DNA from: Candidatus Acidiferrum sp.
GTDB taxonomy: Bacteria > Verrucomicrobiota > Verrucomicrobiia > Limisphaerales > UBA11358
Reading direction: 5' to 3'
Assembly (NCBI GenBank): GCA_035506715.1
Contig: DATJOW010000095.1
Coordinates: forward strand, 5,393-69,392
DNA length: 64,000 nucleotides
Shown here: piece by piece, positions 6,137 to 29,490 of the stretch
Layout of the letters: each line of letters starts with the position of its first letter
Position numbering within the stretch: position 1 is the first letter of the stretch
The notes under the pieces: generated by a model
Database searches by the model: none
Told to the model about the DNA's origin: nothing
Seen by the model: the letters and a program-made list of their open reading frames with translations, nothing else
Made by a program: the position numbers and the translations under genes

Positions 6137-7554
6137 ATAAAGCCGTCTCCCATGAGCCGGTTCCGATTTCCGCCGCGGGTGCGGCGGCAAATCTCCGGAA
6201 GCGTATCCTGTTGATCACGCCGGAAAACCCGGAGATCAACCGGGTCCGCCGGAGACAACTCAACAATTTCACGCAAATAACCATGCCCTACCTGGCGGGG
6301 TTTATTGACGAAGCCCGCTACCAGATCGAGTTGGTGGACGAATACAACCAGCGCGTTCCTTACGCGCGTCCGGTGGATCTCGTGGCCATCACGGTGAACA
6401 CGCCCAATGCGCCGCACTGCTACCGGATGGCGGCGCGCTTCCGGGCGCGCGGCGCCCGGGTGGTGATGGGCGGGCCGCACGCCACGTTGCGGCCGGATGA
6501 GGCGGCCCGGCACTGCGACCATCTGGTGGAGGGTGAAGCGGAGGAGACCTGGCCGCAGTTCCTCGACGAGTTTTACCGCGGGTGCGCCGTCCCGCGCTAT
6601 CAATCCGCCCGCCCGCCATCGCTGGCCGGTCTGCCTGTTCCGCGGCGTGATCTGATTCGGCGCCGGTATTTCACCAAGGGGGCGGTGTTCGCCACCCGCG
6701 GCTGCCCGTACCATTGCAGCTACTGCAATCTCAAACAGATTTACCACGCCGGCTTCCGCACCCGGCCGGTGCCCGAGGTGCTGGCGGATATTCAAAGCAT
6801 GTCCAACCGGTATTTCGTTTTCTGGGACGACAATTTTTTCGGCGATGTGGACTATGCCGCCCGGCTGCTGACCGCGTTGAAGCCGCTGCACCGGCGTTGG
6901 GCGGCCCAAGTGAGCATTGATCGGTGCACCGATGACCGGCTCTTGCAGCTGGCCCGCGACGCCGGATGTGTCTATCTGTTCATCGGCCTGGAATCCTTCT
7001 CCGAGGCCGGCCTGGCCAGCGTGAACAAGGGATTCAACCACGTGTCGCGCTACGCGGAACTCATCCGGCGCATCCATCGCCACGGCATCTGCGTGCAGGC
7101 GGGCGTCATGTTCGGCTTTGATGCCGACGGCAACGATGTTTTTGCACGGACGCTGGCAGCCTGCGAATCCATGGGCATTGACGGCGTGACGGTGAGCGTG
7201 TTGACGCCGCTCCCCGGGACGAGGCTGTATGAAGAAATGAAACGCGCCGGCCGGCTGGCCAGCGATGACTGGGCCTGGTTCAATGGCAAGACGCGCGTGG
7301 CGTTCCGGCCGCAGCAAATGTCCGCCGAAGAGTTGTTTGCCGGTTACCTGTGGTTCCGGCGGCAATTCTATTCGTTCCGGTCCCTGTTCAAGCGGATGGC
7401 GGTGTCGCGCACGAATCTCGTCCACAATTTTCTGGTCAACCTCGGCTACCGCTGGTCGCTGGAACCGGTTGGGAGTGAAGCCGGGCAACCAAGGCCTGTC
7501 CCCGCGGCGCGGGCGGGGAAATTTATCGGCGCGAAAATGGCCACGGCAGTTTAG
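6133..7554 (+). CDS. B12-binding-domain radical SAM protein (class B), paralogue of the preceding gene
   Basis: ILLITPENP...VAITVNT...VVMGGPH followed by RGCPYHCSYCN. The ATG at 6133 overlaps the upstream stop (ATGA 6133-6136). Confidence 0.8.
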   Translation: MNKAVSHEPVPISAAGAAANLRKRILLITPENPEINRVRRRQLNNFTQITMPYLAGFIDEARYQIELVDEYNQRVPYARPVDLVAITVNTPNAPHCYRMAARFRARGARVVMGGPHATLRPDEAARHCDHLVEGEAEETWPQFLDEFYRGCAVPRYQSARPPSLAGLPVPRRDLIRRRYFTKGAVFATRGCPYHCSYCNLKQIYHAGFRTRPVPEVLADIQSMSNRYFVFWDDNFFGDVDYAARLLTALKPLHRRWAAQVSIDRCTDDRLLQLARDAGCVYLFIGLESFSEAGLASVNKGFNHVSRYAELIRRIHRHGICVQAGVMFGFDADGNDVFARTLAACESMGIDGVTVSVLTPLPGTRLYEEMKRAGRLASDDWAWFNGKTRVAFRPQQMSAEELFAGYLWFRRQFYSFRSLFKRMAVSRTNLVHNFLVNLGYRWSLEPVGSEAGQPRPVPAARAGKFIGAKMATAV

Positions 7555-7593
7555 GGAAATGACTTTAGCGGTGGCGCGGCGTTTGCCACTCTT

Positions 7594-8781
7594 ATGAAAA
7601 CGCGAATGAAACGAATTCTGGCCGGATTAACGGCTTTGACCATCGCGGCGTTCCTCTGGCTGCCATGCCTGCATCTCCTTTTCGCCCGGCCCGCTTCCAA
7701 CCTCCGACAGGACCCGGGTCTTTCACCCCGGGCGCGCCAACTGGCGGCCCGGCATTTGCAGCTCTGGACTGAACCCGCGTTACGTGAAACGGAGCTCAAA
7801 AAAATGCGGGCGAGCAACGCGGAATGGGATTTCATGGGGCGCAGCTATCTGGTCTGGTCGCTGGCCAACATGGCCCTGCGCGACCCGGCCGCCCGGGCGC
7901 GTTACCTGCAGACGATGGACCAGATCATCAAGGAAACCCTGCGGCTCGAGCAACAGGAAGGCATGTATTTCTTTCTGATGCCCTACGCCAGGGACCGGCA
8001 CTATCTGGCGCAACCGGCGCACAGCCTCTTTCTGGACAGCGAGATCGCCCTGATGCTGGCCGCGCGCCGGGTGGTGGCCGAGAAACCGGAATACAAAACC
8101 CTGCTGGCCGAACGCGTGAACGGCATGGTCGAGCGCTTCCGGCAAAGTCCGCACCTGCTGCTGGAAAGTTATCCCGACGAATGCTGGATGTTCGATCACT
8201 GCATTGCGCTGGATGCCATCAAGCTGGCCGATTACCTCGACGGCTCCGATCACTCGGCGTTGATTCGCGACTGGCTCACGATGGCCAAACGCAAGCTGGT
8301 GGACCGCGAATCGGGCCTCCTGATTTCCAGTTTCACGGCCGACGGTGTCCCGCTGGACGGCCCGGAGGGCTCCAGCATCTGGATGGTGGTGCACAGCCTG
8401 CAATTGCTCGATGAGGACTTTGCCCGCGACCAGTATCAACGCGCCCGGAAGGAACTGGGCGAAACCACCCTGGGCTTCGGATACGCCCACGAATGGCCGA
8501 AATCGTGGAAAGGCCAGGCGGACGTGGATTCGGGCCCGATTGTTCCCGGATTCAACATCAGCGCCGGTTCGAGCGGCATGGCGTTCGTCGGTGCCGCCTC
8601 GTTCGGGGACGACCAGTTCCTGGTGCCGCTGGCGGCCACCCTGGATTTTGCCGGGTTTCCCTCGCGGTCCCACGGCCGGCTGAAATATTGCGCGAGCAAT
8701 GAGGTGGGCGACGCGGCCTTGCTGTATGCGGCGACCCTCGGACCGCTTTGGCAAAAGGTGAAAACCGGAATCAAACCATGA
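7594..8781 (+). CDS. Signal-anchored all-alpha protein; possible linalool dehydratase/isomerase (Ldi)-like (alpha/alpha)6 barrel
   Basis: N-terminal hydrophobic anchor (ILAGLTALTIAAFLWL). The segment SYPDECWMFDHCIALDAIKLADYLDGSDHSALIRDWLTMAKRKLVDRESGLL resembles, from my memory only, the Cys-pair active-site region of Ldi. Not verified. Confidence 0.35.
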   Translation: MKTRMKRILAGLTALTIAAFLWLPCLHLLFARPASNLRQDPGLSPRARQLAARHLQLWTEPALRETELKKMRASNAEWDFMGRSYLVWSLANMALRDPAARARYLQTMDQIIKETLRLEQQEGMYFFLMPYARDRHYLAQPAHSLFLDSEIALMLAARRVVAEKPEYKTLLAERVNGMVERFRQSPHLLLESYPDECWMFDHCIALDAIKLADYLDGSDHSALIRDWLTMAKRKLVDRESGLLISSFTADGVPLDGPEGSSIWMVVHSLQLLDEDFARDQYQRARKELGETTLGFGYAHEWPKSWKGQADVDSGPIVPGFNISAGSSGMAFVGAASFGDDQFLVPLAATLDFAGFPSRSHGRLKYCASNEVGDAALLYAATLGPLWQKVKTGIKP

Positions 8782-9125
8782 TAAGAGTTTTCTGGCAGAA
8801 GCTGGCGCTCTTCCGGCGGGCTGAATTTCTCTCGGCCCGGGACTTGTGGCAGCGGGCCGTCGCCATCAGCGCCTTGTTTTTATTGGCGCATCTTGCCGGC
8901 CTTCGTGAATTTACCAGTGTCTTGAACGGAACGGTTGGCTCGACGGCCGTGGATGCGAGGCTGGGGATTTTTCTGGCGGCATTTTATATCCTGTTGTACC
9001 TGGCGTTCGTTGTCCTGGTGCCCGTGTTGATCCTCGCCGCAATGATCCTTGCAATTTGGCAACGATGCGTGCGCGCATCAGGCAGGTCTCGAACAACTGA
9101 ACGGGTTGGAAACGATCTGGTCTAA
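8778..9125 (+). CDS. Small membrane protein
   Basis: The ATG at 8778 overlaps the upstream stop (ATGA). Two hydrophobic helices (AISALFLLAHLAGL; IFLAAFYILLYLAFVVLVPVLILAAMILAIW). Confidence 0.55.
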   Translation: MIRVFWQKLALFRRAEFLSARDLWQRAVAISALFLLAHLAGLREFTSVLNGTVGSTAVDARLGIFLAAFYILLYLAFVVLVPVLILAAMILAIWQRCVRASGRSRTTERVGNDLV

Positions 9126-9139
9126 AAGACGACTACGTT

Positions 9140-9862
9140 ATGAAGTACCTGAAGCTGCCTTTTCAGCGCGAGACCCGGGCGCCCGTGCTGGCGTTATTGT
9201 TCGCCTCCGCCATCAGCCTGGTCCTGGTCGGCGCGTGCATGGTTTGGACGAAAAATCTCCACTACGGCCTGCTGGTCTGGAATCTGTTTCTGGCCTGGCT
9301 GCCGCTCGGGTTCGCCCTGCTGGCGCGGGATGCTCTGCGCTCGTCGCCGGAGCGGACGTGGCGTTTTTGGGGTCTGGCCGCCCTTTGGCTGCTGTTCTTT
9401 CCCAATGCCCCATACATTTTTACCGACCTGGTGCACCTCTGGACGAGCTTCCGGCTGCAGTTCTGGATTGACCTCACTTTGATCCTGCTGTGCGCGCTGA
9501 CCGGGCTGGTGCTCGGTTTTGTCTCGCTGTACCTGATGCAATCCGTCGTAGCCCGGCGGTTCGGCCGCGCGGCGGGCTGGTTGTTTGTGGTGCTGGCCAC
9601 GGGGCTGTGCAGCATCGGCATCTATCTGGGCCGGTTTCTCCGCTTCAACAGCTGGGACGTGTTCCTGCGGCCGGGCAAAATTTATCACGGCCTGGACGCC
9701 TGGGCCGCCAGTCCGATGATCAACACGGCGTCCGCGGCGTTTCTGGTGGTCTTTTCGGTGTTCGTTTTTATCGCCTACCTGATGCTTTATGCCTTGACAC
9801 GGCTGCCCCACGCCGATGTCGGTCCCCTCTCCGCGGAGAACCGCCGGCGGGAAGACCCCTGA
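9140..9862 (+). CDS. Integral membrane protein, DUF1361-like
   Basis: Six or more hydrophobic segments. The FFPNAPYIFTDLVHL and RFNSWDV motifs resemble DUF1361 as I recall it. Confidence 0.5.
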   Translation: MKYLKLPFQRETRAPVLALLFASAISLVLVGACMVWTKNLHYGLLVWNLFLAWLPLGFALLARDALRSSPERTWRFWGLAALWLLFFPNAPYIFTDLVHLWTSFRLQFWIDLTLILLCALTGLVLGFVSLYLMQSVVARRFGRAAGWLFVVLATGLCSIGIYLGRFLRFNSWDVFLRPGKIYHGLDAWAASPMINTASAAFLVVFSVFVFIAYLMLYALTRLPHADVGPLSAENRRREDP

Positions 9863-10172
9863 GGTTCGCAAGCATCCGTCGCTTGGCCCCAAACAAATTT
9901 GACCGCCTGGCGCGCCATGCAAACCATGTGCGGAACGGAACTTCAACGGCACTAGGACGGGCGCGCCTCAACCGCTTCGAGCTTTTCTTCCAAATCTGAC
10001 TCGCGAACCAGGCTGTCCGCGCTCCGTGCAGCGTGGCACTGCTTTCCCTTTTGGCGGACAACTCGCCGCATATTCCTGTGTGTTGTCCTATAATTGAGAA
10101 AAATATAAGCTGAAAAACACTGAAAGAAACGCGCTCGCCCTCACGAGTTATAGGCGGATGCAATCATCACTT

Positions 10173-22629: not shown

Positions 22630-23598
22630 CTACAAGCCCAGGTTGTTGGCCATGATGCCAATGACGGTTAACGGCCCCTGGTCCTCCAAGCTGTCGGCCG
22701 CCTTGTCCACCTTCTGCAGGGTGAGTTTGGCGTTTTTATAAAATTCCTGGTCGTTGACGAGCTTGCCGATGGTGCCCTCGCCGTGGTTGACCTTCAGCAA
22801 TATCTGCTCCAGGTTGGTCATCGAGGCCGTGGTGGCGTTGTAAAGCGTCGGGTCGGTCACCAGTTTGCCGATCGTGCCCTGGCCATTGGTGATTCCGCTG
22901 ACGACGCCCCGCACTTCGGCGACGGTGTCTTGCAGGTTGGTGACGGTGACCAGCGCGGTATTGTAAAGGGCATCCGAGTAGATCAATTTGCCCACCGTGC
23001 CCTGGCCGCTGGCAATCTGGCCGGAAATGTTTTCGATGTTGGAGATGGCCCCCCCGATGTGGCCGCTGTTTTGTTTGACGAAATCCACCAGCGGCCCCAT
23101 CAGGTTGTTGATGGTGTCGGGGGTGAAACTCTTGGTGAGATTTTGGATGCCGGTCGTGGCCCCATCCAGCTTGGTCATGATGGCGTTGAGGTCTGGCTGC
23201 TCCTCCGTCACCAGCACCATGCCGTCGGTCGCGCGCGGCGCCTCCGGCGAGCCAAAATCAACCGCGACAAAGTTCTGCCCCATCAGGCCGGCGAATTTCA
23301 CGACCGCCTTGCTGTCCGTTTTAACGATGGCGTCCTTTCGAAGTTTCATCGTCACCTTGACCTTGTTGCCGGCGAGTTCGATTTTTTCGACCCGGCCGAT
23401 TTCGACGCCGGCCATCTTCACGGCGTTACCCAACTTGAGATCCTGCACGGTGTCGAACAGAGCGCCGAGCCGGTACCCTCCCCGGAACGATTCGACGCCG
23501 CCGAGGGTTTCGGTTATCACCCAGGCGGCAAATACGGCCAGCACCACAAAGTAGCCCAGCCGGGTTTCAAGTGAATGTTTTGTAGTCATAAATATCAA
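22630..23598 (-). CDS. mlaD: MCE/MlaD-family substrate-binding protein with a C-terminal repeat extension
   Basis: N-terminal TM plus MCE domain (VKMAGVEIGRVEKIEL). C-terminal repeats GQGTVGKL / GQGTIGKLV / GEGTIGKLV. Confidence 0.8.
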   Translation of the reverse strand: MIFMTTKHSLETRLGYFVVLAVFAAWVITETLGGVESFRGGYRLGALFDTVQDLKLGNAVKMAGVEIGRVEKIELAGNKVKVTMKLRKDAIVKTDSKAVVKFAGLMGQNFVAVDFGSPEAPRATDGMVLVTEEQPDLNAIMTKLDGATTGIQNLTKSFTPDTINNLMGPLVDFVKQNSGHIGGAISNIENISGQIASGQGTVGKLIYSDALYNTALVTVTNLQDTVAEVRGVVSGITNGQGTIGKLVTDPTLYNATTASMTNLEQILLKVNHGEGTIGKLVNDQEFYKNAKLTLQKVDKAADSLEDQGPLTVIGIMANNLGL

Positions 23599-24356
23599 GC
23601 TTCGCGTTTAAAGTCGGCATGCAGGAAGGTCTGCACCAGGGGGTCGGGATGGCGCTTCACCTCGTCCGGCGTGCCGATCGTGAGAATCCGGCCTTCGTTG
23701 ATGACGGCGATCCGGTCGGCCACCCCAAACGCCAGGTCGCGGTCGTGCGACACCACGAGCGAGGTGACGTGAATGCGCTGTTGGAGCTGCAAAATTTCCT
23801 CGCCGATCACCACCGACGAAAGCGGATCGAGCTCGCTCGTGGGTTCGTCGTAAAGAATCAACTGCGGCTCGATGACCAGCGCCCGGGCGATGGCGGCACG
23901 CTTCTTCATGCCCCCCGAAAGCTCGGCGGGCATTTTTGCCTCCGTCCCCTTGAGGCCGACGTCTTCAAGCTTTTCGGCGACGATCCGCGTTATTTCTTCC
24001 GGCGGCTTCAGACGGTGCTCGCTGAGGTACAACCCGACGTTCTCCCCGACGGTCAATGAGTTCAGCAGGGCGCCGGACTGGAAGACCATGGCCAACCGGT
24101 ACTGATTGGCCACTTCCGAGGACTGGATGGATTGGCCGTTGACAAGAATTTCGCCGGCATCGGGCGGCTCCAGCCCGATCAGGTGCCGGAGCAGCACGCT
24201 TTTGCCGCTGCCGCTGGGTCCCATGATGACAAAGATTTCACCCGGCTGGACCTCGAAATCGATGCCGTTGAGCACGGGTTGCTTGCCGAAGCTTTTATGC
24301 AGCCCTCGCACTTGCAGGCTGACCCCGGTTTGTGGTTTGGCAGTGGCGTCCGTCAT
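23595..24356 (-). CDS. mlaF: ABC transporter ATP-binding protein (MlaF-like)
   Basis: Walker A GPSGSGKS, signature LSGGMKKR, Walker B LILYDEPTS. 4-nt overlaps with both neighbours. Confidence 0.85.
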   Translation of the reverse strand: MTDATAKPQTGVSLQVRGLHKSFGKQPVLNGIDFEVQPGEIFVIMGPSGSGKSVLLRHLIGLEPPDAGEILVNGQSIQSSEVANQYRLAMVFQSGALLNSLTVGENVGLYLSEHRLKPPEEITRIVAEKLEDVGLKGTEAKMPAELSGGMKKRAAIARALVIEPQLILYDEPTSELDPLSSVVIGEEILQLQQRIHVTSLVVSHDRDLAFGVADRIAVINEGRILTIGTPDEVKRHPDPLVQTFLHADFKREA

Positions 24357-25090
24357 TTCAAGAGCACGCGGGTCAACACGTAGTCAAATATCACAATCAA
24401 CACGATGGAATTGACGACGGCCTTGGTCACCGAGCGGCCGATGCCGCGCGGACCGCCGATGGTCGCCAGGCCCTGATGGCAGGAGACCACCCCGATGATC
24501 AAGGCGAAACAAAAGCTTTTGAACACGCCGTTGACCACGTCCTTCACTTCCACCACGTCCCGCAAATTGGCCCAGTAAGCCTGGAACGGAATGGCAATGT
24601 GGCTGTTGGTCTTGGCCACGATCGCGCCGCCCAGCCAGCCGACCAAAATGGCGAACGTCACCAGCATCGGCAACGCCACGGCGATGGCGAGGAGCCGCGG
24701 CAGGACCAGATAGTGAACCGGATTGATGTTCATGGTCCGCAATGCATCCACCTCCTGGTAAACGCGCATGGACCCGATTTCCGCCGCCATGGCCGAGCCA
24801 ATCCGCCCCGCGATCAGGATGGCCATCATCACCGGCGCCAGTTCCTTGGCCATGGAAATTCCGACGATGCCGCCCACGGCGCCGGCCAGGCCGCGCTCGA
24901 CCAGCACCGGGCCGGTTTGCAGGGCAATGACCGCACCGATGAAGAACGACAGCACGCAGACCATCAGCAAACTGGCGTTGCCGATTTCGAAAAACTGGTC
25001 AAAAACCTTCTGCCGTTGCCGCCACGCCAGCGGCAGAGACAACAGGGTGCGCCAAAAGAGCAGGACGATTTCGCCAATGTTCTCAAACAT
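24353..25090 (-). CDS. mlaE: ABC transporter permease (MlaE-like)
   Basis: 245 aa, 5-6 TM segments. ...SMAKELAPVMMAILIAGRIGSAMAAEIGSMRVYQEVDALRTM... is the MlaE signature region. Confidence 0.85.
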   Translation of the reverse strand: MFENIGEIVLLFWRTLLSLPLAWRQRQKVFDQFFEIGNASLLMVCVLSFFIGAVIALQTGPVLVERGLAGAVGGIVGISMAKELAPVMMAILIAGRIGSAMAAEIGSMRVYQEVDALRTMNINPVHYLVLPRLLAIAVALPMLVTFAILVGWLGGAIVAKTNSHIAIPFQAYWANLRDVVEVKDVVNGVFKSFCFALIIGVVSCHQGLATIGGPRGIGRSVTKAVVNSIVLIVIFDYVLTRVLLK

Positions 25091-25093
25091 AAT

Positions 25094-26566
25094 TCAACCT
25101 GGCGGCGCCGCCGCCGATCCGCGTTTTTGATACACTGGGATGAAAAACAATCGCGTCTGCTTCATTTCCGGACCCGATTGATACTGAAAAAGCCCGAACA
25201 GGAGCGAGCATTTTTTCGAGACAGCGGTCGTGTCGCGGCGATATAAATTCCAGAGCAACGACTGGCTGGCTGCTCCGATCTTCGGATTGGACTCCGATCG
25301 CCACACCGACCATAACGGCGACCAGTTCCGTTCCACACCCCGGTTGTCCGGCAGCGCGGTTTCAACCAGCGCGAGGATTTGCAGTCGGCGGTTGCCGTTG
25401 AATTCGCGGTGCCAGACGAATAAGGGCCAAAGGTCCAGGCGCTTGCGCTCCGCGCCGGTCTCGAGATTTTTTTCCTTCACATCCTGAAACAGGTAAAACA
25501 AGACCCGCGTTCGCTCCCGGTCCAGCGTCTCGGCGTGCCGACGGTCGTGCTTGTAAAGCGGCCAAAGGTAATACTCGCTGTCAAAACTGTCGTTATGCGC
25601 ACGGCTGAACAGGGGCCAAAACCGGGTCGTGGTCTTGCCTTCGCCGCGGGCGATGTCGATAATCGGCCAGGGGCCTTCCCATTCGTGGTATTTTTTCGCG
25701 CGGTCATCAATCCAGGTGAACAACGGCCAGATCACCGTGGTCACGTCACGTTGGGGCGAGCGGGTCAGGCTGTAAAACAGCAGGGTCGCGCGGAACTTCT
25801 CCGGATTGTCGGTGCCCAGCCCGTTGTTCTGCCGGAAATAGACCGGCCAAAGGGCGAAAAACCGGTCATGGCCGCCGATGACTTCGGTTTCGCCGAACCC
25901 ATTGGTGCTGCGGGTCACGTCCTTGTGCTCGTTCCCGACCAGCGGCCAGCATTGCCAGCCCCGCAACCCGTCTCCGTGCCGCAGATGAAAAATCGGGAAC
26001 AGATAATTGTCCGTCACCACGTCGCGCTTGCGGGTCTCGCTGTAAAGTGGAAACAGAAAGACAAAAATGTCGTCGCGGAACAGCCGGTCCTTGATGTGTC
26101 CGTAAATCGGGATCAGGGCAGTGTAATTCCGGTTGGTATCGGGCGAGCGCTGCTGAAAATAGATGGGGAAAAGGGTGACTCGTTTTGCCTGCTGGGCATT
26201 CTGATTCTGGCCGCCGGCAAAACTGAACAATTCCAAAAACTGGCCGCGATACTCCATGCCAAAACGTTCGTACGTCAGCAACGGATATAAAAGGTCGAAT
26301 TCCTTGGATTCCGTGTCCGGATCGGTGTCGTAGGAAAGCAGTGGCGGGATGGCCCAGGTCGTTTCCGAATCTCTGCTTTGGTCGTAAAAGAACGGCCCGA
26401 CCGCTTCGGTGCGATGGCCGGATCCCAGCGTCAGGACAAATTTCTCGTAGAGGGGGCCGGCACACACCTCATTCTCCGCCCCAAGAGCGGCCATTGAGCC
26501 CAGCGCCAGCCCCAAGCTGATGATCCGCAAGCCGAGGGCGAAAATGTTTAGTCGGTCAGACATCAT
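25094..26566 (-). CDS. Secreted repeat protein of unknown function, first gene of the Mla-type operon
   Basis: Signal peptide, then about twenty recurrences of an aromatic-Pro motif (LYPLLTY, LFPIYF, LIPIYG, LFPLYS, LFPIFH, LWPVYF, IWPLFT, FWPLFS, LWPLYK, LWPLFV, ...). Only 3 nt separate it from mlaE. Confidence 0.6.
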   Translation of the reverse strand: MMSDRLNIFALGLRIISLGLALGSMAALGAENEVCAGPLYEKFVLTLGSGHRTEAVGPFFYDQSRDSETTWAIPPLLSYDTDPDTESKEFDLLYPLLTYERFGMEYRGQFLELFSFAGGQNQNAQQAKRVTLFPIYFQQRSPDTNRNYTALIPIYGHIKDRLFRDDIFVFLFPLYSETRKRDVVTDNYLFPIFHLRHGDGLRGWQCWPLVGNEHKDVTRSTNGFGETEVIGGHDRFFALWPVYFRQNNGLGTDNPEKFRATLLFYSLTRSPQRDVTTVIWPLFTWIDDRAKKYHEWEGPWPIIDIARGEGKTTTRFWPLFSRAHNDSFDSEYYLWPLYKHDRRHAETLDRERTRVLFYLFQDVKEKNLETGAERKRLDLWPLFVWHREFNGNRRLQILALVETALPDNRGVERNWSPLWSVWRSESNPKIGAASQSLLWNLYRRDTTAVSKKCSLLFGLFQYQSGPEMKQTRLFFIPVYQKRGSAAAPPG

Positions 26567-26736
26567 TCTGATGTTGATTATGAGGTGCGGCTAGGCCTAA
26601 TTTTGAAGACGGAATCGACATGGCGTTATCGTTAACTGGTTGGCGATTCTCTTCGTTTCGGGTTGTTAACAGCTTGGTTTAACATTGATGTTGACTTCCT
26701 GCCGTTTTTCTTTATGTTTTTCATACACTTGAGGTT

Positions 26737-29490
26737 TTACCTCGGTTCCTCCTGACCCGGCGTCGACGGCGAGTTGTCGGCGCTGGGTTGTTTTATTAGC
26801 GGGCGCCACCGGCCCAGCAAATTCAAAAGCGCCGGGACCAATGTCAATCCGGCAACCATGCACGCCGCGATGCCGGTGGCCATGACACAGCCTAAGCTGT
26901 GAATGCCGCGGTCTTTGGCGATGATCAAACTGCCGAAACCGGCGATGGCCGTCAATCCGGATACCAGAACCGCTTTGCCGGTACTGCGTGCCAGAATGCT
27001 GGGGGTCCGTTCTTCGGCAAATCGATTGAGGATGTGAATGCCATTGGTCACGCCGATGCCGATGACCAGCGGCAGCGTCATGATGTTCGCGAGATTGACG
27101 GGAATCCCCAGCCAGCCCATCAAACCCGCCAGCCACAGGGTGCCGATGCCGACCGGCAACAACGCCAGTATCACCGAAAGGAGGCTGCGGAAATGGACGA
27201 AAATCAGGAGCACGATTGCCGCCAGTGAATACCACGCCGCTTGAATGTAACTGTCCTTCAACAATTCCTCATACTCATAAAGTTGCACGGGGGTCCCGGT
27301 GACACTGGGATCCACCGTCCGCAATTCCGTGATGAATTTTTTCTGATTGTCCCGCTGCCACATGTTATCCCGCGGAAAGACGTGCAGCAGAAATTTTCCG
27401 GTCTCTCCCACGAACTGGTCGCGGAAGGCCCCGGGCAGATCCTGCAGGTGGACCGGTGCCGTATTGTCCTGATGAAGCAGCAACTGAAAGGTTGCCCGCA
27501 TGTCGTTGAACAGCGCTTGCTGGAACTGCGCCAGCTTGTCCGCGTGCGCCGCCAGCGCATTGGTGTCGCCCGCCAGCATCGTCTTGCGCAGATCTTCAAT
27601 CGCCTGGCGCAAGGCGACCAGATTGCCGGCCAGCTCCCGGTCGCTGTCACCCACTTCGTCCCGGGCCAGCCCCAGATAACCGTAAAGTCCGAATAAAGTC
27701 CGACTGAAGGCGTAGATATCGAGCGGCTGCAGATCCGGTTCTCCGAACTCCAGCGGCGCCAATTGCCGCTTGATTCGACCGATGAGGTTGAGCTTTTCGG
27801 CGTTGCTCGCGTTGAGAAAATTCTCAAACAGGCTGATGGGGGGCTCCACATCTGCCACGGTCGGCAATCGTTTGATCCGGGCGACCAGGTCAATGGCGTT
27901 GGTCACCGAATCGGCGACCACGGCCGCTTCCAGCAGGGATTGGTCGGCCGCCAGCAGCTTATGCTCGTACACCACCGAGGGGAGTCCGATGCTCTGCAAT
28001 TTTTCCAGGTTGTAGTCAAAATAGACCTTGCGCGCCTGGTGCCAGGCCAGCGCGCATAGCGCGGTGGTGAGAATCACGACCAGCACCGGCCGTTGCAGCC
28101 ACAAGTTTTCGATGCGGGCCCGGGTAACGTCCTCGGCGGCTTGATGGTCGATGACGTTTTGCCGCCCCCGCAGGAGCAGTGCCGGCAACAGGGTCATCAT
28201 GGGTATGAAGCAGATCAGCAGGCCGCCGCCACAAATCACTCCCAGTTCCTGGATCCCTTTGAAATGGGTGAACGCCATCGCCAAGAAGGCGCCCGCGGTG
28301 GTCAGGGCACCGGTGAAAATGCCCTGGCCGGTGAAGACCATCGCCTTCGTCAGCGCCGCCTCTTCGGTTTTGCCGTGCCTCAACTCTTCCTCATAGCGGG
28401 TGATCAGGTGGACCCCGTAATCGATGGCCAGGCCGATCAGCATGGGGACAAAGGGCAGGGTCAAGACATTCAAGTGCCCAATGGCCAGCGTGGTGAAAGC
28501 CAGGGTATAGGCCATTCCCACCACCAGGCAGATCGTCGCTTTTACTGGCCGGCCGGTCTCGTTGTAGCCGTAAATGAAAATCAAAACACAGAGCACCAGC
28601 GACACAATGCTGGCGAGCGTGATATCCTTCTGGGACTGCATGGTCTCGTCATAATCGAGCACCGGTTCGCCGATCAGTCCGACATTGAGGCCGGGCACCT
28701 CGTGTTGTGTCTCTTGAATCAGCTCGCGCAGCCGTTCAATCGCGGCGCCGTTCAGTTCATTGGTTGGGGCATGCGACTTGACCAGAAAAATCCGGCCGCG
28801 GTCATAGGTCAGGTAGATATTCGTTTCGCTGCCGGCATTGAACAGCGACGCAACGCTCGGCGAGGGCGGCGTGCCGGACCGGTTCAGGCTGTCGGCCGCC
28901 TGCGTCACGATGCGGGTCAAGGCCGGCAGCGCCTGCACGAGCGATTCCGTCTGGGCGTTCGTTTCCCGCGGCGCAGTCCGGAAGCTGGTGTTGACCTGCT
29001 CGAAGAAGGAGATGAGATTGGTGGTCGGGGTAAATCGGCGGATAAACGGCAGGGTGCCCTCCAGGACTCTTTCCAGCTCCACCAAATCTTCCTCATCGGC
29101 AAACAACAGGGCCTTTGCCCCCATGACCGAGAGGCTCTTCTGGAAAAACACATCCCGGAACAGGTTGGTTTCGGCCTCCATTTTGGCGGCGATGCGCTCG
29201 ATAAACTGGCGGTTTTTCTCAATGTTTTCACTCTCCACCACCACCACCAGATCGTTGCCTTGTTGGGGAAATTCCCTTTGCAGCGCCAGAAAATTCTGAT
29301 GGTACTTCTGGTTGGCCCCGACCAGATTGTCGCGGTTCATGTCGGTTTTCAGATACGCATGGGTGTAGACCACACATACCCCGAACAGCACGGCTTGCGG
29401 GTAAATGAACCAGCGCGGGTGGCGAAATATCGCCGCCGCCAGCCAGGCCAGCAACCGGGCAAGGAGGGTGTCGGGGCTTAATGCTTTCAT
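26737..29490 (-). CDS. RND-superfamily MMPL/HpnN-like lipid exporter
   Basis: 917 aa. Two 6-TM bundles, each preceded by a large soluble loop. The N-terminus (RHPRWFIYPQAVLFGVCVVY) and overall layout resemble HpnN/MMPL transporters rather than AcrB. Confidence 0.7.
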   Translation of the reverse strand: MKALSPDTLLARLLAWLAAAIFRHPRWFIYPQAVLFGVCVVYTHAYLKTDMNRDNLVGANQKYHQNFLALQREFPQQGNDLVVVVESENIEKNRQFIERIAAKMEAETNLFRDVFFQKSLSVMGAKALLFADEEDLVELERVLEGTLPFIRRFTPTTNLISFFEQVNTSFRTAPRETNAQTESLVQALPALTRIVTQAADSLNRSGTPPSPSVASLFNAGSETNIYLTYDRGRIFLVKSHAPTNELNGAAIERLRELIQETQHEVPGLNVGLIGEPVLDYDETMQSQKDITLASIVSLVLCVLIFIYGYNETGRPVKATICLVVGMAYTLAFTTLAIGHLNVLTLPFVPMLIGLAIDYGVHLITRYEEELRHGKTEEAALTKAMVFTGQGIFTGALTTAGAFLAMAFTHFKGIQELGVICGGGLLICFIPMMTLLPALLLRGRQNVIDHQAAEDVTRARIENLWLQRPVLVVILTTALCALAWHQARKVYFDYNLEKLQSIGLPSVVYEHKLLAADQSLLEAAVVADSVTNAIDLVARIKRLPTVADVEPPISLFENFLNASNAEKLNLIGRIKRQLAPLEFGEPDLQPLDIYAFSRTLFGLYGYLGLARDEVGDSDRELAGNLVALRQAIEDLRKTMLAGDTNALAAHADKLAQFQQALFNDMRATFQLLLHQDNTAPVHLQDLPGAFRDQFVGETGKFLLHVFPRDNMWQRDNQKKFITELRTVDPSVTGTPVQLYEYEELLKDSYIQAAWYSLAAIVLLIFVHFRSLLSVILALLPVGIGTLWLAGLMGWLGIPVNLANIMTLPLVIGIGVTNGIHILNRFAEERTPSILARSTGKAVLVSGLTAIAGFGSLIIAKDRGIHSLGCVMATGIAACMVAGLTLVPALLNLLGRWRPLIKQPSADNSPSTPGQEEPR

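Follow-up and report, generated by a model that had tools for sequence, protein, structure and literature searches.

The 64,000-nt window analyzed here, a stretch of Candidatus Acidiferrum sp. contig DATJOW010000095.1 (assembly GCA_035506715.1) to which the coordinates below refer, contains on its minus strand, between positions 22630 and 26566, four tightly packed open reading frames (ORFs) arranged as REP–MlaE–MlaF–MlaD, where REP stands for a 490-aa repeat protein. MlaEFD lipid transporters of the needle type are already known, and the locus belongs to them; what is new here is a widespread fourth component. We propose that the four genes constitute one Mpc-like trans-envelope MCE/Mla lipid transporter, in which REP would replace the PqiC-like outer-membrane partner, and we assign to this reading a probability of about 0.5.

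Gene Content of the Operon

REP is encoded at 25094–26566 (minus strand, as are the other three genes), and a gap of 3 nt separates it from the gene of a 245-aa MlaE-family ABC permease (24353–25090; PF02405, E 3e-72). This permease has no fused STAS domain, and its score with TIGR00056, 228.7 bits, exceeds the cutoff of 212.2. The mlaE gene overlaps by 4 nt that of a 253-aa MlaF-like ABC ATPase (23595–24356; PF00005, ABC_tran, E 1e-33), which in turn overlaps mlaD by another 4 nt. As the MlaF equivalog model gives 180 bits, under its cutoff of 441, the protein is best described as a generic ABC ATPase that is placed in the system by the position of its gene. The last ORF (22630–23598) encodes a long MlaD of 322 aa when read from a TTG start codon; an ATG located three codons downstream yields the 319-aa version found in public records. 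PF02470 matches residues 41–116 of this protein (E 2e-17). The core of an MCE/Mla ABC lipid transporter, that is, an MlaE-family permease, an adjacent ABC ATPase and a membrane-anchored protein with an MCE domain, is therefore present.

The identical public contig has no MlaA, MlaC, STAS/MlaB or PqiC family recorded in the 10 kb that border the operon on each side. The first-pass annotation of this DNA had described an Mla-type ABC operon with no MlaA, MlaB or MlaC nearby and led by a secreted repeat protein. The ORFs, their gap and overlaps and the Pfam matches agree with the first part of that description, and the signal-like N-terminus of REP and its repeat statistics, given below, with the second. 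The canonical proteobacterial Mla pathway (MlaFEDCB plus MlaA) was considered and discarded for this locus: MlaA, MlaB and MlaC are recorded neither within these 10 kb nor in 11 related contexts, and the length of MlaD also rules against it (322 aa vs. about 180 aa in the short, needle-less type).

Linkage of REP to mla Genes

The REP family comprises more than 3,000 sequences at 90% clustering, and 1,597 clusters at 50% identity with E ≤ 0.001. Wherever a source names a member, the name is "hypothetical". The genomes closest to the window locus are Verrucomicrobiota of the Limisphaerales/Pedosphaera group, and the family ranges over Verrucomicrobiota, Desulfuromonadales, Abyssubacteria/Poribacteria, Desulfobacca and Nitrospinae, its distant members carrying the names Poribacteria, Abyssubacteria, Desulfobacca, Desulfuromonas, Trichloromonas, Geoalkalibacter and Nitrospinae. 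With the close alignment as query, the scanning of genomes yielded Limisphaerales-type relatives only; the distant contexts were looked up singly (n = 11).

All 85 close, Limisphaerales-type loci present the arrangement (YebC)–HpnN-like–REP–MlaE–MlaF–MlaD, as far as the contigs reach. Because in these loci the whole neighborhood is conserved, they are by themselves weak evidence of linkage. Among the distant members, which are mostly 24–35% identical to the window REP, 10 of 11 adjoin mlaE, and mlaF and a long mlaD are present wherever the contig extends. Seven of these contexts, including the complete genome of Geoalkalibacter halelectricus, show the order REP–E–F–D; the order is F–REP–E–D in one, E–F–D–REP in another, and in one more REP–E is followed by the contig end. 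The flanking genes are different in every distant context, and the distant REP operons have no recorded gene of the PqiC, MlaA, MlaC or STAS families. Synteny with mla genes, on which the first-pass annotation had made its reading depend, is thus seen outside this genome, in other phyla and in rearranged orders. As the adjacency of REP and mla genes is kept despite these rearrangements and the unrelated flanks, we regard REP as a fourth gene that is conserved in mla operons of one specific kind, and it is very probably a functional part of the needle-type Mla transporter.

Some other characteristics of these loci were recorded. In G. halelectricus (locus L091, CP092109), a 320-aa TPR protein is encoded at 7058–8020, with a 20-nt overlap with the start of REP; TPR genes are not adjacent to REP in most other contexts. 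The remaining unannotated genes next to distant operons, with products of 322, 560, 318 and 216 aa, are, like that of the TPR protein, neither REP-like nor common to the loci. Several records of metagenome-assembled genomes with close REP homologues are labeled Bifidobacteriaceae, Candidatus Acidoferrum, Methylomirabilota or Sulfopaludibacter; their loci are collinear with those of Verrucomicrobiota, and such labels are probably binning or naming errors.

Repeats and Export Signal of REP

The strict motif [LIFWC][FWYI]P[LIV][FYLV] occurs 12 times in REP, compared with a mean of 0.08 and a maximum of 2 in 2,000 shuffles. When degenerate copies are included (VGPF, PPL, LEL, LLF, GPWPI, LFYL, LWNL, LFGL and FF), REP contains about 21 hydrophobic turns, a figure that bears out the "about twenty" aromatic-Pro repeats counted initially. 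Eight of the turn prolines are the only invariant residues across 76 relatives with identities down to 23%, and in the alignment of these relatives the Trp and Gly residues beside the turn prolines are nearly invariant.

REP has no match in Pfam or NCBIfam, and none among PDB sequences even when a 76-sequence profile is used at E ≤ 10; no Pfam family is common to more than 2 of the 76 relatives. A match to a known family unrelated to lipid transport, the other finding that would have spoken against the first-pass annotation, was accordingly not obtained in these three resources. The MORN repeat family was considered as a candidate and rejected: REP has no Pfam match to it, 0 of the 76 family members match MORN at E ≤ 1, and there is only a local resemblance in fold. 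NCBIfam family NF047486 (LA_1737_Cterm, from Leptospira) was rejected as well. The window REP does not match it; 9 of the 76 members do, and all four matches examined score 13.8–20.3 bits vs. a cutoff of 60. Sequences P0210, P0214, P0225, P0237 and five others of alignment A2 are these sub-threshold matches. The Leptospira LA_1737_Cterm family may hold the same kind of hairpin repeat; we found no literature on the LA_1737 family.

A signal peptide is predicted at about residues 1–30 of REP (26477–26566, minus strand), with a possible cleavage site between A-L-G and A and with no lipobox; residues 3–27 are modeled as a helix. A hydrophobic, signal-like N-terminus is found in about 90% of the full-length members of the family. 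The frequency of lipoboxes varies from about 2% in the close subfamily to 11% among cluster representatives and 19% in one distant subfamily. In the examples listed, the residue at position +2 is A, S, K, M or R, and never Asp; by the enterobacterial sorting rule, these lipoprotein-type members would most likely be located at the outer membrane. At the other end of the protein, the last residue among 306 full-length members is K in 96, P in 31, E in 26 and R in 26, and F, Y and W together account for 14.

Predicted Structure of REP

When supplied with the 76-sequence alignment (identities down to 23%), AlphaFold2 produced a model with a mean predicted local distance difference test score (pLDDT) of 94.4 and a predicted template modeling score (pTM) of 0.83. 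With only the 35 close homologues, which share at least 62% identity, pLDDT was 31. The model consists of the N-terminal helix, which corresponds to the signal peptide, followed by 45 strands of 4–8 residues connected by very short turns, and has one 24-residue insertion with two short helices. REP is all-beta, as had been suspected from the recurrence of the motif, and built of hairpin repeats. About 22 β-hairpins make up one antiparallel meander in which hydrophobic and polar turns alternate strictly by edge: turns at the hydrophobic edge carry the motif (LFPL, LWPL, WPL, LFYL, LWNL and others), and those at the polar edge read RD, DG, EG, DS, GTDNP and others.

The two edges were compared in 400 family sequences. 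Columns of the hydrophobic turns have a Kyte–Doolittle hydropathy of +1.34, vs. −1.38 for those of the polar turns, and contain 1% charged and 34% aromatic residues, vs. 31% and 5%, respectively. Their column entropy is 0.97 bits (2.33 bits at the polar turns), and the Wimley–White interfacial energy is −0.51 kcal/mol per residue (+0.48 at the polar turns). Hence, the hydrophobic edge of REP is strongly conserved and the opposite, polar edge is variable. The hydrophobic zone is about 2–3 residues deep in each strand, and from five residues out, 31–47% of the residues are charged.

Mean-field direct coupling analysis with a reduced alphabet was run on 312 and then on 400 sequences (effective numbers 216 and 253). 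Each strand couples equally to both of its neighbors, with a value of 0.44 across either kind of turn vs. a background of 0.27, as is expected of a continuous antiparallel meander. Foldseek returned no global match to the model; the query-normalized TM score was at most 0.21 in the PDB and at most 0.24 among viral models, and the target-normalized one at most 0.45. Confident local matches were obtained with the TCP10 G-box, OspA and MORN repeats, all of them single-layer hairpin sheets, and also with WD40 proteins and the teneurin YD shell.

Considered together, the short and charged strands, the lack of a C-terminal aromatic signal, the export signals and the lipoboxes present in some members point to a periplasm-facing protein that attaches peripherally to a membrane. 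One member of the family, encoded at 8001–9962 of locus L090, is larger (653 aa), with about 150–200 extra N-terminal residues preceding the hairpin array; its gene is followed by those of MlaE, MlaF and MlaD.

The MlaD Needle and Its Tail

MlaD is composed of an N-terminal transmembrane segment, one MCE domain (residues ~41–145), a needle region and a hydrophobic C-terminal tail, so that about 175 residues lie beyond the MCE domain. The needle region (residues ~146–305; 22684–23163, minus strand) carries the motif G[QE]GT[VI]GKL at residues 198, 239 and 273. The repeats reported in the first-pass annotation are therefore present, in three copies; the C-terminal extension in which they lie, called unusual at that time, turns out to be the known helical needle of long MlaD/MCE proteins, as indicated by the Helical_needle family and by the match to Mce1B. 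The latter protein, from M. smegmatis (8fed_B), is the best solved match of MlaD, over residues 13–268 (E 7e-12), and the alignment runs into the needle. The precomputed Pfam annotation of Helical_needle (PF28544) is faint to unmarked on this MlaD and its orthologues, and the needle is predicted to be helical. In the distant REP operons, every complete MlaD is 323–411 aa long and has Helical_needle annotated. Of the eight REP-linked MlaD proteins of other phyla, seven carry 2–4 copies of the motif GxGTxGKL, often with a spacing of exactly 34 residues, and one has only the variant GRGTIGGL.

The hydrophobic C-terminal tail of about 17 residues (GPLTVIGIMANNLGL; 22633–22683, minus strand) would form the needle tip. 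A similar end is seen in all eight REP-linked MlaD proteins of other phyla: (G/A/V)P precedes some 12 hydrophobic residues, and Phe is usually the last residue. The corresponding genes are those of loci L086, L087, L089–L091 and L093–L095, and the conserved tail recalls the tip, formed by a single strand, that has been described in some long MlaD proteins with no barrel. An MlaD of the Veillonella parvula type, with a C-terminal β-barrel, was discarded for the window, where only the ~17-residue hydrophobic tail follows the last repeat. The long form accounts for about 85% of MlaD homologues and is the norm outside Proteobacteria; the MlaD proteins of the PVC group (Planctomycetes, Verrucomicrobia, Chlamydia) have no C-terminal barrel (PMC10665443). 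We also observed a match of MlaD residues 14–198 (E 1.4e-4) to chain I of a recently deposited PDB entry, 13hr, in which a "Mce/MlaD domain-containing protein" of 312 aa makes up 8 chains; this entry may be a newly solved long-MlaD system.

Proposed Mechanism and Alternative Explanations

In the mechanism that we propose, MlaE2F2 would be the inner-membrane ABC motor and MlaD a hexameric MCE ring, the C-terminal helices of which would form a hollow needle reaching across the periplasm to the outer membrane. As the fourth subunit, REP would be delivered to the periplasm and would work at the outer-membrane end of the needle. According to the model, its hairpins, about 22 in number, make up one long antiparallel sheet, the faces of which are polar and one edge of which is a conserved, uncharged aromatic-Pro rim. 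This rim would either settle in the interfacial zone of the outer membrane, on its inner leaflet, or clamp the hydrophobic needle tip; in this way, REP would hold the needle in place and provide lipids with an entry or exit. That the role of REP lies specifically at the outer-membrane end is close to an even bet, and perhaps slightly less. The first-pass annotation had already raised the possibility of an outer-membrane partner, and a location of REP at the outer membrane is plausible.

Several observations weigh against this mechanism. Most members of the REP family, that of the window included, have no lipid anchor, and their association with a membrane rests only on the hydrophobic rim. The shallow hydrophobic zone fits interfacial binding and a protein interface equally. 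No reliable long-range contacts were obtained by direct coupling analysis with either 312 or 400 sequences, and the Nitrospinae member, located on a 5.7-kb contig, has no mla gene beside REP. In addition, that REP touches MlaD and lies at the outer membrane is inferred, and so are the stoichiometry of the complex, its substrate and the direction in which lipids would move.

Other roles for REP have to be weighed against the proposed one. According to the suggestion made initially, REP would be an integral outer-membrane β-barrel, a very large porin-like channel that takes the needle. The all-beta structure, the export signal and the number of strands, 45, would suit such a channel, and the Mla-like TGD transporter of chloroplasts is paired with an outer-envelope β-barrel. 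However, strands of 4–8 residues are too short to span a membrane, for which about 9 or more are needed, and the strands, with 31–47% charged residues from five positions beyond the hydrophobic turns, show no alternating hydrophobic face. The family also lacks a C-terminal aromatic β-signal, its commonest last residue being Lys; some members are predicted lipoproteins; and there are 0 outer-membrane barrels among the 50 best Foldseek matches listed. A classical large barrel is for these reasons highly unlikely. A periplasmic REP that stays off the outer membrane, either as a sheath or rail along the MlaD needle or as an MlaC-like feeder of lipid or substrate, deserves more attention, and we still regard it as rather unlikely. 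Most members have a plain signal peptide with no lipid anchor, and a fully extended 45-strand sheet would, as judged from the model, measure about 200 Å, a length comparable to that of the periplasm. Sheets of the MORN type, the closest local match of REP, often pack against long helices. On the other hand, MCE systems of the needle type are believed to work without a shuttle (PMC10665443, PMC12436622), and both faces of the REP sheet are highly charged, with no obvious lipid pocket. Members with a lipobox argue for attachment to a membrane, and the pTM of 0.83 hints, if only softly, that REP may be a compact object rather than an extended one.

REP might also stay at the inner membrane, as an uncleaved signal-anchor protein or a retained lipoprotein, and surround or regulate the MCE ring or the periplasmic face of MlaE. 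Its N-terminal helix (residues 3–27) is long, its cleavage site is weak, and the Mce systems of mycobacteria have accessory subunits at the inner-membrane end. Against this, the absence of Asp at position +2 of the lipobox examples predicts, by the enterobacterial rule, sorting to the outer membrane, and the conserved hydrophobic tail of MlaD would still need a distal partner; we find an inner-membrane role distinctly unlikely. Finally, REP could have a function unrelated to lipid transport and be merely co-transcribed with the mla genes. The family member with no mla neighbors would agree with this, and REP is known here from sequence and model only. Nevertheless, an adjacency kept across phyla, through rearrangements and with full turnover of the flanks, in 10 of 11 independent contexts, is hard to explain without a shared function, and mere co-transcription appears very improbable.

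Comparison with Known Systems

In Brucella abortus, the mpcEFDA genes encode MlaE, MlaF, a needle MlaD of 331 aa and a lipoprotein of the outer membrane, which is co-purified with the three other proteins, and this Mpc system has been proposed to bridge both membranes (PMC12436622). The operon of the window resembles it in having four genes, an MlaD of about 330 aa that has one MCE domain and, C-terminal to it, a coiled-coil needle, one exported fourth component, and neither MlaA nor MlaC. The two systems differ in the nature of that fourth component, which in Brucella is a PqiC-like lipoprotein for which an octameric ring is predicted, whereas here it is an unrelated 490-aa hairpin protein from a family that usually has no anchor. 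Moreover, MpcE contains a fused STAS domain, which the window MlaE does not have. No PqiC-like lipoprotein (PF03886) is recorded in any REP operon, where REP takes the place of the fourth gene.

Veillonella parvula also has an MlaEFD core with no MlaABC, and its long helical MlaD is thought to span the periplasm (PMC10665443). In contrast to the window, where a tail of about 17 residues and a separate REP gene are found, the MlaD of V. parvula ends in its own outer-membrane β-barrel. In the PqiABC system of E. coli (PMC10897342), a dedicated partner is exported and keeps the tip of an MCE needle at the outer membrane, as we propose for REP. PqiB differs from MlaD in its three MCE domains, and the place of the ABC transporter at the inner membrane is taken by PqiA; PqiC is a small alpha/beta lipoprotein that forms a toroid, and not a hairpin-repeat sheet. 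The role that REP would play is thus that of MlaA in E. coli, of the PqiC toroid in Pqi and of MpcA in the Mpc system of Brucella. The mycobacterial Mce1 system (PDB 8fed/8fee/8fef), which provides the best solved match of MlaD, likewise combines a YrbE/MlaE-type permease with an MceG/MlaF-type ATPase; it differs from the window system in that it is a heterohexamer of six different Mce proteins, works in a mycomembrane envelope and has no REP-like subunit. With respect to REP itself, the MORN, TCP10 G-box and OspA proteins are locally similar, being arrays of hairpins of about 20 residues that build one exposed antiparallel sheet (Foldseek probabilities 0.96–1.0). There is nevertheless no global superposition and no sequence-family match with any of them, and the aromatic-Pro turns that define REP do not characterize those families.

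Most diderm bacteria have been argued, on the basis of phylogenomics, to use only MlaEFD with a long MlaD (PMC10665443). This bears on how phospholipids pass across the periplasm outside Proteobacteria; for barrel-less MlaD proteins, such as those of the PVC group, the engagement of the needle with the outer membrane was left unexplained in the same work. REP, a large and unannotated family present in several phyla and almost always inside such operons, is a concrete candidate for the missing piece; its architecture is confidently predicted and has no solved relative. More tentatively, and with more doubt than confidence on our part, REP could represent a new class of envelope proteins, with a fold that has no solved counterpart, forming the outer-membrane terminus of barrel-less long-MlaD bridges in Verrucomicrobiota, Desulfuromonadales and several candidate phyla, and hence a third independent solution besides MlaA and PqiC. 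As the family includes the cultured G. halelectricus, with its complete genome (CP092109), experiments are feasible.

Upstream Region and Flanking Genes

Upstream of REP there is an AT-rich spacer (26567–26736, minus strand; GC 0.41) that is likely a regulatory region. Of the 79 related loci in which both genes were found, most have an AT-rich spacer, which usually measures 100–220 nt up to the REP match. The two GTTAAC palindromes and the 9-nt repeat that the first-pass annotation had singled out in this spacer are indeed there (GTTAAC at 26631 and 26665; TGATGTTGA at 26569 and 26686); GTTAAC is not above chance in the window (3 found vs. 5.6 expected), and only one GTTAAC and one copy of the 9-mer overlap conserved motifs, the second copy of each showing no conservation. 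These conserved DNA motifs are motif A (TCAATGTTAAA; 26678–26688, minus strand) and, 54 nt downstream of it, motif B (TAACGATAACG, with the consensus TAACGWTAAYG; 26624–26634, minus strand), each of which occurs once in the 64-kb window. Motif A is found once per locus in 56 related loci and motif B once in each of 54, a 55th locus having overlapping matches on both strands. In the 37 sequences that carry both motifs, the spacing is always 53–55 nt (37/37). Both are essentially invariant, while the rest of the spacer varies among relatives. Examined as a possible RNA element, the spacer gave neither a match in Rfam nor a consensus structure with RNAalifold; on these grounds, motifs A and B are probably a DNA-level operator or promoter arrangement. 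A simple scan detected no sigma-70-like promoter on the operon strand.

Next to the spacer (26737–29490, minus strand) lies the gene of a 917-aa HpnN-like RND/MMPL transporter of the HAE3 type (PF03176, E 9e-50). Its identity as the HpnN hopanoid transporter was rejected, as the scores (533 bits vs. a cutoff of 752 for TIGR03480; 292 vs. 1100 for NF052374) fall below the HpnN and BstA cutoffs. In those close loci in which the contig extends far enough, this gene lies immediately upstream of REP, and it is absent from all 11 distant contexts; being found only in the lineage of the window, it is not part of the conserved four-gene unit. The combination of the HpnN-like gene with the REP operon hints at a lineage-specific island for the export of envelope lipids. 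Further out from the operon are yebC, a divergent MTHFR gene and a BBP2 porin gene.

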